Shown: positions 15,251-57,171, counted from the stretch's first letter. The stretch: 64,000 nt of DNA from an uncultured Gammaproteobacteria bacterium (GCA_964599455.1 CAZREA010000002.1:51810-115809), one strand, 5' to 3'. The notes: a model not told the origin generated them from the sequence alone. Program-made: numbers and translations.

Positions 15251-16243
15251 TCATAATCCTTTCGTAAGGTTCATACCGCTTGTGATATGACGAATGGTCG
15301 AGGTGAGCCTGTAGGCATTCGCATAAGTACAAAGACCTAAATAAGAGCTCACATTCTTTTTCGTCACTCGTCGAACCATCCTGTGCGCAGTATCAGGACG
15401 TATGATCGTTGCATAGGGGAGAAGAATATAACCAAGGAAGTCAAAACCCTGCGTCCAGGTACGAACATGTATTTTATCTGGATGTAATTCGATCTTGAGA
15501 TTCTTACGAAGAAAAGCATCGACCTGCCCTGCTAATGCAAATCCTTTCTTTCGAGAAGAGGTGAGCATAATAAAATCGTCACAATAACGAAGATACTGTT
15601 TTACTCTGAGCGTTTGTTTTACATACCAATCAAGCTCGTGAAGATATACATTGGCAAATAATTGACTCGTAAGGTTGCCAAGAGGAATTCCTGTTCCGGG
15701 CGACACGGAAAAACTTGTAACGATATTACGCAGTAATGTCATTACGCGCGGGTCCGATATCCGTTTGGAGAGAAGCTGGAGCAGAATGACATGATTGATT
15801 GACGCAAAAAATTTTCGTACGTCACACTTTATCGCATGTATGGTTTTTGTATTGTTCTTTGATGTTTGGTGAGCGAACTTTCGCAACCTTCGTACTGCAG
15901 CATGAGTACCCTTACCAACTCTACACGAATAGCTGTCATGAATAAACCGTTCCTCAAATAACGGTTCGATAACATTGACAATGGCCTGATGAACAACTCT
16001 ATCCTTTACCTCTGCTTTATGGATTATCCGCTCCTTTGGGTCGTGAATGGAAAAGGCTTGATAAGGGCGGTGGCGATAGCTACCCGAAATAAGCTCTTCT
16101 CGTATTGCAAAAAGGTTGTCCTCAAGCCTCCGTTCGAATACCATGACGTCTTCACGAGTCCGCTTACCTTTACGAAAACGTTCCCACGCCAAAAGCAGAT
16201 TCTCAATCGATGCCAAGTGCTCGAATACATCGTTATTCCCCAT
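15251..16243 (-). CDS. diversity-generating retroelement (DGR) reverse transcriptase
   Basis: RT motifs: SYSCRVGKGTHAAV (motif 2), KCDVRKFFASINH (motif A), LGNLTSQLFANVYL (the DGR-type IGxxxSQ motif B'), and RYCDDFIML (YxDD). At 330 aa it is the size of bRT. TR/VR repeats lie adjacent. Confidence 0.85.
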   Translation of the reverse strand: MGNNDVFEHLASIENLLLAWERFRKGKRTREDVMVFERRLEDNLFAIREELISGSYRHRPYQAFSIHDPKERIIHKAEVKDRVVHQAIVNVIEPLFEERFIHDSYSCRVGKGTHAAVRRLRKFAHQTSKNNTKTIHAIKCDVRKFFASINHVILLQLLSKRISDPRVMTLLRNIVTSFSVSPGTGIPLGNLTSQLFANVYLHELDWYVKQTLRVKQYLRYCDDFIMLTSSRKKGFALAGQVDAFLRKNLKIELHPDKIHVRTWTQGFDFLGYILLPYATIIRPDTAHRMVRRVTKKNVSSYLGLCTYANAYRLTSTIRHITSGMNLTKGL

Positions 16244-16265
16244 TCTATGAATGACACTATTTTCT

Positions 16266-16275
16266 CCCCCCCCCC
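16266..16275. repeat. C10 homopolymeric tract in the 56-bp RT/avd divergent intergenic region
   Basis: ctcccccccccccaggc; a slipped-strand-prone tract positioned where divergent promoters would lie. Confidence 0.6.
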
Positions 16276-16299
16276 AGGCTTAACCGAGAAGAGCGACAA

Positions 16300-16656
16300 T
16301 TGCTCCGCGGAGGTCCCGGCGATATTCCCATCGTTCATACGCTCTATGACACCTATGTTTTATGGAATGAAGTGTTAGAAAAGTTTCCTAAACTGCAACG
16401 TTACACGCTCGGTGAAAACTGTTCGCGATACTTACTCTGTACCCTCGAGCTTCTTCTCGCTGCCGCAACATTAGCAAGCCAAACAGAGAAATTGATAAAA
16501 CTGAAAGAAGCAAGCGCGAAGATTGATACCGTGAAACTCCTTGTACGACTCTGTAAAGATTGTAAATGCATAACCAATATCCACTATCTCAAAACCGAAT
16601 CCAAACTTATTGATATAGGAAAGATGTTGGGAGGATGGATAAAATCTGCAGGATAA
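16300..16656 (+). CDS. avd: Avd-like accessory protein (four-helix-bundle family), encoded opposite to RT and TR
   Basis: FPKLQRYTLGENCSRYLLCTLELLLAAATLA and a C-terminal IDIGKMLGGWIKS resemble the four-helix-bundle/Avd family (BPP-1 Avd ends VGRILGSWIARV). The minus strand has no ORF of 60 aa or more here. Start codon uncertain. Confidence 0.6.
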   Translation: MLRGGPGDIPIVHTLYDTYVLWNEVLEKFPKLQRYTLGENCSRYLLCTLELLLAAATLASQTEKLIKLKEASAKIDTVKLLVRLCKDCKCITNIHYLKTESKLIDIGKMLGGWIKSAG

Positions 16657-16658
16657 GA

Positions 16659-16690
16659 GAAGGAGCGCCTTTCGGCGCTCCTTTGCCTTG
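16659..16690. terminator. perfect hairpin between avd (+) and TR (-), putative bidirectional terminator
   Basis: aggagcgcc-tttc-ggcgctcct with T-rich flanks. Confidence 0.5.
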
Positions 16691-16696
16691 ATGAGA

Positions 16697-16832
16697 ACTC
16701 CCGAGGGGAGGGACGGAGTAACCGGGGTTGTCGTTGCTCCGCCAATTGGCGTTCAGCTTGACCTTACCGGAATCGGTGTTGCGGTTCACAACCACCACGT
16801 TCTGCCACTCCTCGTTATCATTCTCGGGGACG
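16697..16832 (-). repeat. DGR template repeat (TR)
   Basis: 136 bp, about 88% identical to 17280-17415. All 16 mismatches are T in this copy on the plus strand, i.e. A on the minus (sense) strand. The in-frame TR translation (NDNEEWQNVVVVNRNTDSGKVKLNANWRSNDNPGYSVPPLG) is rich in AAC/AAT Asn codons. Confidence 0.85.
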
Positions 16833-17279
16833 CCTCCCTTTACATCCCATTCTTCCAGGCCACCGGGTACAGACGCATCCAAGGCCAGCCGAATCTCCAG
16901 ACCCCTGGCTCGTACTGACCGTACCCTGAATTTTATGCGGAACCTGTCGCCGAATACAGGCTGGTTCCAAAATGGAATGCGGAGTGCTCGTCAATCCGCG
17001 CCGCACGCTCCGGCATTCAAGGGAAAACGGGATTCCGACGGCATATTGGGACTGCAAGAGATTTCGGCGATCCACCTTCGCCAAGGCTACGGTGGACGCA
17101 CTGGCCTACTTTCCGCTCACAGTTTACCAAAAAGTTGGACAAATAGAAGAGCGGCACCTGGGGAATACCGTCCTTCGTAGGAGGCAAAAACCAGATGCCG
17201 CGAGTCCGCTGCGCGGACGGACGGCCAAGGGACAAATCCCAAGGCCTCCGAGCGCCAAGCGTTCAAGTGCCGAGTATCA

Positions 17280-17415
17280 CTACCCGAGGGGAGGGACGGA
17301 GTAACCGGGGCGGTCGTCGCTCCGCCAACTGGCGAACAGCCTGACCTCACCGGAACCGGTGTGGCGGAGCACAACCACCACGCTCTGCCACTCCTCGCCA
17401 CCATTCTCGGGGACG
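17280..17415 (-). repeat. DGR variable repeat (VR) at the 3' end of the target gene
   Basis: Counterpart of the TR; VR carries C/G/A wherever TR has A (sense strand). It ends exactly at the target-gene stop codon (TAA, 17280-17282). The identical 28-nt GC-rich 3' segment cccgaggggagggacggagtaaccgggg is initiation-of-mutagenic-homing (IMH)-like. Confidence 0.85.
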
Positions 17416-18212
17416 TTAGCCTCATAGCCAGCGCAGTACCAGGCACAGGTCTTGTCGTAGTCGATGACGCCCACCCGCTTCGGGAACAACCACGCGAGCA
17501 CCAGGCCTTCGTCCGCGAGGGACTGGGCATTGCGCACCGACGTGACGTCTTTTCGCTTGCGGTTGGCCGAGAGGTCATTGATGATGACCCACTCGACGAC
17601 CGCGTGGTGTGTCTCATTGCCGTTGAGGAGCCGAAGGCGCTCCACGTCCTCGCCCTGATAAGGCATCGGCTTGGAGTGCAGCAGCTCCCAGCGCCAGTGC
17701 TTGGGGTGGACACGACGCATCGCTTCCCAGTGACGCTCGAAGGTAAGGTACACGCCCTCCGTGCCCTCGCCCCAGCGGATGCGGAGGCTGCGAAACGCAT
17801 CCTTGCCCTTGGGCCAGGCGGGAGCAGTATCGGCGAGCCGGAAGAACACGTCTTCAGTGATACCCCAGTTACCGGCCTCGTTCTGGGCACGAAGGGCGGC
17901 GAGCTGCTCGTCCACCGTCTGCTCGAATGGGTTGGCGTCGGCCTTCTGGTTCGCGGCCTCCACCACGAACTTCATCAGCTCGTCGTCGCCGAGAAGCTTG
18001 AGGAAGAGGGCCATGGAGCCGCCGAAGCGGAAGAAACGGCCGAAGAACTCATCGGCCTGACGGAGAAACACGTTCATCACGCACCTCGAAGCCATCTCTG
18101 ACCAGCCCACAGGAACGCGGCATGCGCCCCATGAACCCTGCCTCTGTTTATTGAGAATGGCGGTTTGGAGCCAAAAAAGCCACAAAACGCCATGCTCAAC
18201 TACGAGAAACAA
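17280..18212 (-). CDS. DGR target protein (variable C-terminus), GC-rich
   Basis: 310-aa ORF at about 60% GC whose last ~45 codons are the VR (…NGGEEWQSVVVVLRHTGSGEVRLFASWRSDDRPGYSVPPLG). N-terminal start uncertain; no obvious signal peptide; fold not recognised. Confidence 0.7.
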   Translation of the reverse strand: MFLVVEHGVLWLFWLQTAILNKQRQGSWGACRVPVGWSEMASRCVMNVFLRQADEFFGRFFRFGGSMALFLKLLGDDELMKFVVEAANQKADANPFEQTVDEQLAALRAQNEAGNWGITEDVFFRLADTAPAWPKGKDAFRSLRIRWGEGTEGVYLTFERHWEAMRRVHPKHWRWELLHSKPMPYQGEDVERLRLLNGNETHHAVVEWVIINDLSANRKRKDVTSVRNAQSLADEGLVLAWLFPKRVGVIDYDKTCAWYCAGYEANVPENGGEEWQSVVVVLRHTGSGEVRLFASWRSDDRPGYSVPPLG

Positions 18213-18263
18213 GGGGTAATAATAACAAAAAAAAGCAAAAAAGTCAACGAACGTGACTGAAAT

Positions 18264-55221: not shown

Positions 55222-57171
55222 TCAAAACCGCAGTCGCTCGTTTAACCCCGACAACGCCTTTACTTCGGCGGGGCCCAGGCTTTCGTCGCCCTTGGCGCGC
55301 AAACGCGCAGCAATCTCGGCGATAGCAACTGCATTTTGTAACGATTCGGTCATCATGCGCACGTATACTGTTTGCAGCGGGCTTTTGCGCCAAGCTAAAA
55401 TACCACGAACCCGTTCTTGATAATCACTTTTTTCCAGCGTTTCCAACAATGATTCAATTTTTCGCACCGCTTCTTCGGGTTGTGGCGATAAACGACGAAA
55501 ATCTGCCAGATTCATGGAGGCAAGTTGCTCAATAGGCCCCATGAGCTTGTTGCCCGGAACGACATCAGCAACTTTCTTTTGCTGCGCAGGCTCTGTCACC
55601 GGTGGCACACTGCCTTTGGTTAGCATTACTTTTGCGGGTGCGGGTTTTACCTCTTGTGCACGCGCCGTTGCCGCCGTTGCCTGTGCCGCTCGTTCAGCAT
55701 GGGCGTCGCGTGCACCCGAAACTTGCGCGCCAGGAAGAATGGGCGCGATGGAATCCGTAGGCAGCGAACCGGTAAGCGCGGCAAATTTCTTATCAAGCAT
55801 TTCCGCTTCTTGCAGTTCGATGCGATCAGCATCACGCTCGGCTATTTCTTCATCTTTCCCATCAACCGCAGAAACGGCTTCACCCGCCAAGCGATACATT
55901 TCTAATCCCGCCTTTATAGCCTCTAGAAGAAGAGGCAAGTGTGCGCCTTTCACTCGATAATCTCTCTCTAAAATATCGTGTGTTTGATACAGATCACGAA
56001 TACCTCGCAACGTTTTTCCTGCGATATCAGCAAAAGCTGCACGCGGTAATTGTACTTCATCAAGTGTGGCCCCGGCTTTTTCTAAAATATTATCGATCGC
56101 CTTGGCGAAAGCACCTTGCAACGCTTCGGCATGAGTTTTGTAGAGCTTCTTTGCAAGCTTCACATCAGCGATATCGGGCTGCGCGATTGCGTCATCCTGA
56201 CTCTTCTTTGTAGCGGGGCGAGTGCGCGAGGGATCTATCGTGCCCTTCCCAACGCTCTGTTTCTTCGGTTGTTCATGCAAAATCTCACCGCTAATTACGG
56301 GAACCTGGGCTGCAACGGCATGCGTGGGCATGATTTCGAGAGCGTGGTCGGGGGGGGTGATGATGGGCGCTGGTTCGGCCGCATCTGATGCCTTTTCCCC
56401 TGCGGCAAGGGAGACGGGTCGGCTTGCCCTGAGCGACGGCGAAGGGCGACCCGTCTGTACGTCGACAGAAGGCGCATCATGTCCGCTATCCGTTTTACTT
56501 GCCCTCCGAAGCTCGAGTGTCGGTGAGAGCGTAGGAGGGTCCGTTTTTGATCCGTCCTTATCCGTTCCTACTTCCCCCAACTCCACGCCATTAATCTCCT
56601 CCCCCAATATCTTCATTACTGCGTCATTCTGCTCTTTCGATAATCCCAATCCACCAATATTCAACGATCGACCAAAAAAGGTTCGTAAACTGTCATCAGT
56701 TTTTTGACCCGCGAGGCGTTGTTCGAGCAAAAAAGCCAAACGTTTTATGAGCACATCCGAAAATTGCACATTTGCTTTTTGAGCAATACGCTCGGCAAAT
56801 TTCTCAGACGTAATCCGTTCTTTTTCAACACGAAGCGCGGGATACGCTTTCACATCTCCACCCCAGGCAACAATTTGCTTTTCAACACCAGGAAGATATT
56901 TCTCCAAGGGCAGCAATCGATATCCCGCCACATCAGCAGCAATCTGTTTGGCTTTTTCTTCATCAATCGCAAACGCTTCTGCAATCATGGTAGGCATGTC
57001 GGCTAAAGGAAGTTGGTCGTCGAGAATAGCATCAGCGAGATCGAGAAACTCATTCGTCCGATCTTCGGGGAGTTGATATTTTTGAACGAGTTCATCCAAG
57101 ACATCATAAATTTGCCCATCCTGAAGAAAAGCACGAGTCGATGAAATATTCAGCAGTTTTGCTAAAACCAT
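55222..57171 (-). CDS. hypothetical protein in the T4SS-like cluster
   Basis: 649 aa with no recognised motif; contains RPE-like copy 3 in the opposite orientation (encoding GTDKDGSKTDPPTLSPTLELRRASKTDSG). Confidence 0.5.
   Translation of the reverse strand: MVLAKLLNISSTRAFLQDGQIYDVLDELVQKYQLPEDRTNEFLDLADAILDDQLPLADMPTMIAEAFAIDEEKAKQIAADVAGYRLLPLEKYLPGVEKQIVAWGGDVKAYPALRVEKERITSEKFAERIAQKANVQFSDVLIKRLAFLLEQRLAGQKTDDSLRTFFGRSLNIGGLGLSKEQNDAVMKILGEEINGVELGEVGTDKDGSKTDPPTLSPTLELRRASKTDSGHDAPSVDVQTGRPSPSLRASRPVSLAAGEKASDAAEPAPIITPPDHALEIMPTHAVAAQVPVISGEILHEQPKKQSVGKGTIDPSRTRPATKKSQDDAIAQPDIADVKLAKKLYKTHAEALQGAFAKAIDNILEKAGATLDEVQLPRAAFADIAGKTLRGIRDLYQTHDILERDYRVKGAHLPLLLEAIKAGLEMYRLAGEAVSAVDGKDEEIAERDADRIELQEAEMLDKKFAALTGSLPTDSIAPILPGAQVSGARDAHAERAAQATAATARAQEVKPAPAKVMLTKGSVPPVTEPAQQKKVADVVPGNKLMGPIEQLASMNLADFRRLSPQPEEAVRKIESLLETLEKSDYQERVRGILAWRKSPLQTVYVRMMTESLQNAVAIAEIAARLRAKGDESLGPAEVKALSGLNERLRF
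56483..56576. repeat. RPE-like palindromic element, copy 3, in frame inside the 55222-57171 gene, inverted orientation
   Basis: The plus strand reads ccgctatccgttttacttgccctccgaagctcgagtgtcggtgagagcgtaggagggtccgtttttgatccgtccttatccgttcc, the reverse complement of the copy 1 form. Confidence 0.7.

Follow-up and report, generated by a model that had tools for sequence, protein, structure and literature searches.

Does the homopolymer that lies between two divergent genes of a diversity-generating retroelement (DGR) act as a switch for the element? The question is raised by a 64,000-nt stretch of DNA from an uncultured Gammaproteobacteria bacterium (GCA_964599455.1, CAZREA010000002.1:51810-115809; hereafter the window), in which a run of ten C residues is found between the gene for a DGR reverse transcriptase (RT) and avd, the gene for its accessory factor Avd. 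An earlier note on this DNA had placed the run in a 56-bp divergent RT/avd promoter and had suggested phase-variable ON/OFF control of RT and/or avd. The results reported here retain part of this suggestion: the run is conserved in the clade and polymorphic in length among near-identical relatives, its location is not simply that of a divergent promoter, and slipped-strand phase variation of Avd through a translational frameshift is the explanation that we regard as probable. The parts of the DGR needed for the argument are listed below, including the template repeat (TR), the variable repeat (VR) and the open reading frames (ORFs).

15251..16243, minus strand: DGR reverse transcriptase gene, 330 amino acids (Pfam RVT_1, E=1.7e-21)
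16247-16249 and 16251-16253, plus strand: two candidate avd start codons (ATG), in different frames, at a distance of 3 and 7 nt to the start codon of RT
16266..16275, plus strand: C10 homopolymer (G10 on the RT strand), predicted to be hypermutable and located in the avd 5' coding leader
16300..16656, plus strand: avd ORF as assembled, TTG start, 118 amino acids (PF22296 bAvd, E=1.3e-13)
16700..16832, minus strand: TR, a 133-nt repeat of VR
17283..17415, minus strand: VR, at the 3' end of the target gene
17280..18095 (ORF to 18212), minus strand: DGR target gene, about 271 amino acids from ATG 18095, 62-65% GC

The C10 run at 16266-16275, reported before and confirmed here, is the longest G/C homopolymer of the 64-kb window. 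Its conservation was analyzed in a set of 80 related genomic loci, of which the six-frame ORFs were searched with the window Avd using jackhmmer. At the equivalent site of the junction between avd and RT, a run of G8 to G12, as read along RT (C residues along avd), was present in 49 of 75 loci, and four loci carried another simple repeat there: (CAGGA)9 in L052, (CT)16 in L053, (CT)11 in L076 and (GA)10 in L067. A homopolymer or other repeat thus occupies the junction in 53/75 loci. Among the 815,176 nt searched, 62 G/C runs of at least 8 were found and 49 of them sit at this junction. The tract lengths (C8 in 5 loci, C9 in 18, C10 in 15, C11 in 7 and C12 in 4) are not confined to multiples of three. 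Two other roles for the run were considered and rejected. Firstly, a conserved PPP protein motif is incompatible with these lengths, with the varying frames and with the substitution of the run by (CT)n, (GA)n or (CAGGA)n. Secondly, poly-G acting as a Shine-Dalgarno-like element for RT does not agree with a distance between tract and RT start that ranges from 3 to 68 nt.

The tract was placed with respect to the avd reading frame. The 56-bp gap of the earlier note (16244-16299) exists only if avd starts at TTG 16300; most of it is avd leader coding sequence, and the tract, being downstream of the ATGs at 16247 and 16251 in an N-terminal extension of avd, does not simply lie in a divergent promoter. 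In the window, a C11 tract read from ATG 16247, or a C9 tract read from ATG 16251, is in frame to M..FSPPPRLNREERQLLRGGPGDIPI, the product reading M..FSPPPRLNREERQLLRGGPGDIPIVHTLY... and continuing in the Avd frame. When the tract is C10, as assembled, the Avd frame is reached from neither ATG 16247 nor ATG 16251. Relatives show comparable configurations: L003, with C10, is in frame and reads MELPLVTPPPRKTEIKRQLLRGGPGD, and L004 and L110-112 carry C11 and would need C10 to read M(R/K)TPISPPPR..RK.RKLL.GGPGD. Homologues devoid of a repeat (L108/109 and L113-115) have a plain in-frame ATG at the corresponding site, about 12 codons ahead of the shared GGPGD motif, MTNTKNKIEQGKLLGGGPGDLPI. Generally, in repeat-less loci the avd ATG is found a few codons before a D-[IV]-P-I motif, usually near the RT start or overlapping it (RT starts being approximate); head-to-head, nearly abutting starts are therefore the norm in this family.

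The same arrangement was found when all repeat-bearing loci were considered. An ATG within 45 nt upstream of the tract, with a frame open up to the tract, was present in 49 of 52 such loci compared to 40% at random positions (binomial p=1e-16), and in none of the 52 does an in-frame ATG follow the tract ahead of the Avd domain. Judged from these comparisons of sequences, the repeat has been inserted past the avd start codon and in front of the Avd domain, and the length of the tract would therefore set the reading frame of Avd. With respect to the nearest ATG, all three frame states were observed: 14 loci are in frame, 11 are short by 1 nt and 24 are long by 1 nt.

If the tract is a contingency repeat, its length should differ between otherwise identical genomes. 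Length variation was assessed in contigs with 100% identical RT obtained from different samples of three related species, using assembly consensus sequences rather than reads.

P0056: G9 in 6 contigs and G10 in 4; 3 other variable columns in 3.9 kb
P0071: G9, G10 and G11 in a single sub-lineage whose members are otherwise identical; in another sub-lineage, a cluster of about 20 substitutions inside VR
P0073: G10 in 3 contigs and G9 in 2; 4 other variable columns in 2.4 kb

Variation of the tract in related genomes, from G9 to G10 and G11 among contigs with identical RT, was thus found, and the pattern of lengths is, at the level of these consensus sequences, that of a hypermutable contingency repeat. 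At one locus the called Avd measures 83, 110, 128, 129 or 132 amino acids or is not called at all, and the tract would explain such miscalls, truncations and absences of avd in annotations of the candidate phyla radiation (CPR). One contig (L102) ends exactly in the tract, and in L061 an N gap lies beside the run. The two sub-lineages of P0071 (L093-L099, alignment columns 314-404), which share an identical RT, differ by about 20 substitutions and one 3-nt indel that are confined to VR; as read from these contigs, the VR-confined cluster directly documents past activity of the DGR in a close relative.

A mechanism can be proposed from these relationships. Slipped-strand mispairing would alter the length of the tract and shift the Avd domain in or out of frame with ATG 16247 or ATG 16251. 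The assembled C10 would correspond to an OFF state, at best weakly expressed through TTG 16300, and C9 or C11 would yield full-length Avd. In the Bordetella model both RT and Avd are required for cDNA synthesis (Handa 2018, as summarized in PMC8632793); since both are needed, a frameshifting repeat would turn mutagenic retrohoming on or off. Within a population, the target would then be subject to an adenine mutagenesis that is heritably yet reversibly switchable. The tract also lies just upstream of RT and may, in addition, tune an RT promoter.

A locus without avd bears on the generality of this arrangement. In L036 (5903-6010; CAVXIE010000003.1, Staskawiczbacteria), the TR and a hairpin are followed by ATG TTA G10 and then by the RT N-terminus. 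This RT is in frame with G9 or G12 only, the homopolymer being inside the RT reading frame. Such a configuration fits a repeat that gates the machine and not Avd specifically.

Several observations weigh against a frameshift switch of Avd. A GTG or TTG located after the tract and able to start a shorter Avd is present in 10/52 loci, including the window (TTG 16300). About 70% of the assembled alleles are out of frame; the distribution of frames does not differ clearly from a uniform one (chi-square p=0.059), and a non-coding tract predicts the same. No Shine-Dalgarno sequence is visible before the leader ATGs, and in some loci these ATGs overlap the 5' end of RT, which partly confounds their conservation. 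The run is always C on the avd strand (49/49), an orientation for which hypermutability alone does not account, and the surplus of alleles with one C too many (24/49) is left without explanation by a frameshift model. Concerning polymorphism, the sole other assembly of the window's species also has C10, a search of JGI metagenomes with a flank pattern allowing a variable gap gave 0 matches, and consensus errors of Illumina assemblies at G/C runs of 9-12 may be a source of 1-nt differences. A protein-based metagenome scan returned relatives at 64% identity or less only.

Among other explanations, the one that survives best, although we consider it unlikely, is transcriptional phase variation, in which the G/C run would be part of an RT promoter's spacer, or would fall within divergent promoters that overlap, and its length would set the -35/-10 spacing for RT and/or avd. 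Repeat tracts in overlapping divergent promoters are known from the TA repeats of Haemophilus influenzae hifA/hifB, the poly-C of Bordetella fim and Neisseria porA/opc. The present tract resembles them in being a single tract between divergent genes that possibly affects both; it differs in having start codons separated by 3-7 nt, a position downstream of the avd ATG and a promoter-like spacing in a minority of loci only. A -10-like hexamer on the RT strand (TAACAT, TAGCAT, TATAAT, TAAAAT or similar) occurs 0-8 nt past the run in 22/47 loci (17.6% in controls) and a full -35/-10 pair with the run as spacer in 10/47 (6.6% in controls), the run keeps a single orientation with respect to RT as well (49/49), and the TR RNA seems to end before avd, so that RT needs a promoter of its own, necessarily in the region of the tract. 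However, promoter-like elements are seen in under half of the loci, the avd ATG-YTA in reverse complement is all that several of the -10-like hexamers amount to, and the sigma-70 scan found no promoter within 16244-16299 of the window. Furthermore, the distance from the run to the RT start is not maintained (3 to 68 nt), whereas the run is tied to the Avd N-terminus. The conservation of the upstream ATG (49/52) and the avd-less L036, with a run inside the RT frame, also favour frameshifting over promoter spacing.

A second alternative, more doubtful still, dispenses with a heritable switch: Avd would be decoded constitutively, at a low fixed level, by ribosomal frameshifting on CCC_C, by transcriptional slippage or from a downstream TTG or GTG start. 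It would account for assembled alleles that are mostly out of frame in DGRs that look intact, with perfect adenine-specific TR/VR differences, and gene callers do give a 118-amino-acid Avd from TTG 16300. The +1 slip of tRNA-Pro on CCC_C is established, and it would correct the commonest state, one C too many (24/49). However, a programmed frameshift requires a fixed offset, and all three states are found (14, 11 and 24 loci) and vary within species. In addition, the di- and pentanucleotide repeats that stand in place of the homopolymer in four loci are not ribosome-slippery, and a downstream GTG or TTG is on offer in 10 of the 52 loci only. Lastly, although homopolymers are error-prone and the N gap of L061 and the contig end of L102 lie at the run, it is highly improbable that the run stems from an error of sequencing or assembly, or that avd is a frameshifted pseudogene of a dying element. 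A run at the same site, with unique sequence to either side, is present in 49 independent assemblies that come from many projects and were made with many sequencing chemistries; RT, TR, VR, hairpin and leader RNA are intact; and VR has diversified recently in related species.

Slipped-strand frameshifting of Avd therefore stays the preferred explanation, and the avd tract can be compared with simple sequence repeat (SSR) contingency loci such as the poly-G tracts of Neisseria hmbR/pgtA and of Campylobacter genes (PMC3786947, PMC2193922, PMC6321876). In both cases a G/C run of 8-12 is found right after the start codon, with frame-shifting lengths, all three frame states and polymorphism between near-identical genomes. 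The avd tract is known from sequence alone, and its target is an accessory factor of hypermutation, not a surface or restriction-modification gene. No report of a homopolymer, phase-variable or frameshifted avd in DGRs, nor of such a mechanism in Patescibacteria, was found in the full-text literature (Paul et al. 2017 being outside its reach), and the combination of a DGR with SSR phase variation in a conserved repeat switch on avd appears to be new. If the switch operates as proposed, lineages could explore variants of the target at some times and hold on to a good one at others, and the repeat would provide a simple answer, at the level of the population, to how a DGR is restrained so that a useful variant is not overwritten at once. 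It would also join two classic mechanisms of evolvability, contingency loci and targeted retro-mutagenesis, in bacteria in which DGRs make up most of the reverse transcriptases (PMC8632793). DGR-finding pipelines should then take frameshifted avd genes as switch states rather than as pseudogenes.

The element to which the tract belongs was characterized as well. The region is a complete DGR, as it holds a DGR-type RT, TR/VR differences confined to adenines, a VR at the 3' end of the target and an Avd. In the RT, the motif LGNLTSQ matches the DGR-type [I/L]GxxxSQ, and its residues L188, G189, N190, T192, S193 and Q194 are unchanged throughout an alignment of 42 relatives. The Avd-like ORF scores 51.8 bits against PF22296 bAvd, for which the cut-off is 40. 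TR and VR differ at 16 positions over 133 nt, and 16/16 of these fall on TR adenines. VR terminates at the stop codon of the target ORF (17280-17282). The final 28 nt are the same in TR and VR, which diverge only past the repeat, as seen when VR's IMH element (for initiation of mutagenic homing) and its TR counterpart IMH* are compared. The target protein has no Pfam match and no sequence match in the PDB. An independent Logan assembly (SRR16481182) matches the window exactly across 4430 nt, C10 included, and ends inside TR at 16729; assemblers tend to break contigs in this way at TR/VR repeats.

The opposite orientation of avd (16300-16656, plus strand), with RT, TR, VR and target all on the minus strand, is borne out by the ORFs, the Pfam matches and the TR/VR data. 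The earlier note had regarded this architecture as unusual, which it is solely with respect to the Bordetella prototype. In 74 of the 80 loci, Avd was encoded immediately upstream of RT and on the strand opposite to it; the six exceptions are L013, L051, L055 and L063, in which RT is at a contig end, and L018 and L036, in which TR directly adjoins RT. According to the detection of TR and VR, the order VR, 220-520 nt, TR, short gap with hairpin, avd (reversed) and RT is shared by more than 60 loci. Relatives of the RT number in the thousands and are nearly all labelled Patescibacteria/CPR. The nearest, at most 79% identical, are labelled Patescibacteria/Uhrbacteria, and Saccharibacteria and similar labels also occur among the top matches and the 80 loci. 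The order TR-(avd reversed)-RT is the architecture B3 of Wu et al. 2018 and makes up 90% of their set of CPR DGRs (PMC5758913). The window shows both features of B3, the core order TR-(avd on the reverse strand)-RT and an RT of a CPR-restricted lineage. Since it has been published as B3 and is seen in 74/80 loci, the architecture counts as known, and the window DGR is an ordinary member of a lineage of Patescibacteria (CPR). It is like the CPR DGRs described as B3 (PMC5758913) and as DGR clade 2 (Roux 2021, PMC8144416) in gene order, strands and CPR RTs. In the latter clade targets are reported to lack a recognizable domain, as in the window, and no architectural difference was noted.

The gap between avd and TR, and the spacer between TR and VR, were analyzed for elements of the TR RNA. 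Four features were identified:

16660..16683, either strand: perfect 10-bp hairpin that separates the stop codon of avd from the 3' end of TR
17152..17170, minus strand: terminator-like hairpin with a T run after the target gene, flagged by the terminator scan and aligned in the closest relatives
17122..17134, minus strand: extended -10 box TTTTTGGTAAACT, with TG at 17130-17129 and TAAACT at 17127-17122; predicted transcription start site near 17114
16833..17121, minus strand: predicted structured 5' leader of the TR RNA, with a covariance-model domain at 16975-17121 and conserved blocks that reach TR

A hairpin with a 9-bp stem had been noted between avd and TR and proposed to terminate both transcripts. 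The hairpin is real and conserved, with 10 bp (16660-16669 paired with 16674-16683, loop TTTC, 7 GC pairs), and is terminator-like mainly on the TR strand. As RNA it has a minimum free energy (MFE) of -22 kcal/mol for the minus strand and of -24.3 kcal/mol for the plus strand (z-scores -2.5 and -3.6). On the TR strand 4 T are present in the next 8 nt, a weak U tract, and the terminator consensus scan did not list this hairpin. Most loci carry a strong hairpin about 13 nt past TR, with differing sequences. A stack of at least 7 bp within 60 nt after TR was found in 50/67 loci compared to 15% of control segments; this count is based on RNAfold, as requiring a perfect Watson-Crick stem undercounts the hairpins (32/67). 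A stem followed by a T-rich tail on the TR strand was present in 37/67 loci compared to 2.3% of controls, and the median MFE after TR was -18.3 compared to -10.4 kcal/mol (p=3e-18). The hairpin is kept in most loci and in the avd-less L036; it therefore belongs to TR. From this conservation, the TR transcript most likely stops at the hairpin and does not extend antisense into avd; the avd transcript may end there too. It had been pointed out earlier that a read-through transcript from TR to RT would be antisense to avd; the terminator-like hairpin, conserved in relatives, probably prevents it.

The VR-TR spacer measures 450 nt by the TR and VR boundaries used here, and no credible ORF was seen in it. 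It had been suggested that the spacer could hold structural elements of the TR RNA, and a covarying leader was indeed found behind a conserved extended -10 box. The -10 box is at the same position in 37/38 loci (45% in controls), and in 28/38 together with the TG (3.8% in controls). An alignment of relatives revealed about 280 nt of conserved blocks from the -10 box into TR. RNAalifold, applied to 15 loci, predicted helices with 37 pairs, of which 30 show compensatory changes. The 5' domain of the leader was described by a covariance model (R1; 139 positions, 31 pairs) that matched 42 of 81 sources (41 of the 80 related loci and the window), of which 29 were outside the seed, once in each and on the TR strand, at 190-350 nt (mostly 220-290) upstream of TR. 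The match in the window (17121-16975) scores 103 bits (E=3e-20). The resulting alignment was fitted to the model, a circumstance in favour of the structure; 93.7% of its cells pair, compared to 34-47% with slid partners, and double changes occur in 28/31 pairs. No Rfam family matched the leader, apart from a chance-level hit to BSnc120 (E=0.38, 20 bits against 114). The TR would thus be transcribed as its own RNA from about 17114, through the leader of about 280 nt and TR, to the hairpin at 16683-16660. As far as covariation and conservation can tell, the functional DGR RNA of this clade probably consists of promoter, structured leader, TR and terminator hairpin, and would measure about 455 nt in the window. 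Delimiting this RNA by its promoter, leader and terminator is useful for reconstitution and engineering.

The region directly 3' of VR contains a further repeated motif:

17225..17274, minus strand: five CTYGG pentamers directly 3' of VR, spaced 7-15 nt

At least 3 copies of CTYGG within 90 nt after VR were found in 18/66 loci compared to 0.36% of controls, and no such array was found after TR in any of the 66 loci. From its position, the array may mark VR as the acceptor, distinct from the donor TR that has an identical end, and may thereby set IMH apart from IMH*. The tract, leader RNA and hairpin are not mentioned in Wu 2018 (PMC5758913), Roux 2021 (PMC8144416) or the RT review (PMC8632793), and the CTYGG array is likewise not mentioned in the two CPR DGR papers; leader RNA, terminator hairpin and CTYGG array are apparently undescribed features of the clade. 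The wider proposal, that DGR hypermutation across Patescibacteria would itself be phase-variable through the avd/RT repeat, with a previously undescribed leader-TR RNA ending in a terminator and a CTYGG array marking the VR acceptor, is one on which we find our judgement evenly balanced.

Compared with the DGR of Bordetella phage BPP-1 (mtd-avd-TR-brt), the window shares RT and Avd, adenine-specific TR/VR differences and a VR at the 3' end of the target. It differs in several respects. In the window avd is inverted, head-to-head with RT. The conserved RNA structure of the window is 5' of TR, whereas the essential structured spacer of Bordetella is 3' of TR; merely about 40 nt, including the hairpin, come after TR in the window. 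The CTYGG array follows VR where BPP-1 has a GC-rich cruciform, and the last 28 nt of the window TR and VR are identical.

The GC content of the window jumps at 16690, from 45% to 60-65%. A chimeric assembly or a recent horizontal transfer was rejected as the cause, because the avd-hairpin-TR junction recurs in the independent assembly and GC-rich targets are found family-wide. In 16 listed loci, the GC content of the target (last 700 nt including VR) is 0.51-0.68 compared to 0.32-0.59 for RT, and the median excess of target over RT is 16 points in 58 loci. No adenine-specific depletion was seen outside VR, so this does not account for the GC excess of the targets. Targets are much richer in GC than RT and avd regardless of the GC content of the host (0.65 vs 0.43 in the window, 0.65 vs 0.33 in L011).

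Other homopolymers were encountered in the course of the analysis. The window holds one further G/C run of at least 8, at 56350: a C8 (56350-56357, C on the minus strand) located in the middle of a 649-amino-acid ORF (55222-57171, minus strand) and in frame as assembled. Two Peribacteria loci, L019 (5617-5627) and L031 (5615-5624), have no 5' tract and carry a G11 or G10 near the avd 3' end, by the TR-avd gap; in L031 the avd frame continues beyond TR. Very long G runs in L034 (3451-3626; G28, G21, G32 and C13) and L013 (1-25; G25, at the contig end) resemble sequencing or assembly artefacts. Upstream of the target gene, a strong sigma-70-like promoter was detected at 18219-18247 on the minus strand (TTGACT-17-TATTAT with TG, 10/12 matches); it would leave a 5' untranslated region of about 115-135 nt ahead of ATG 18095 or 18077.

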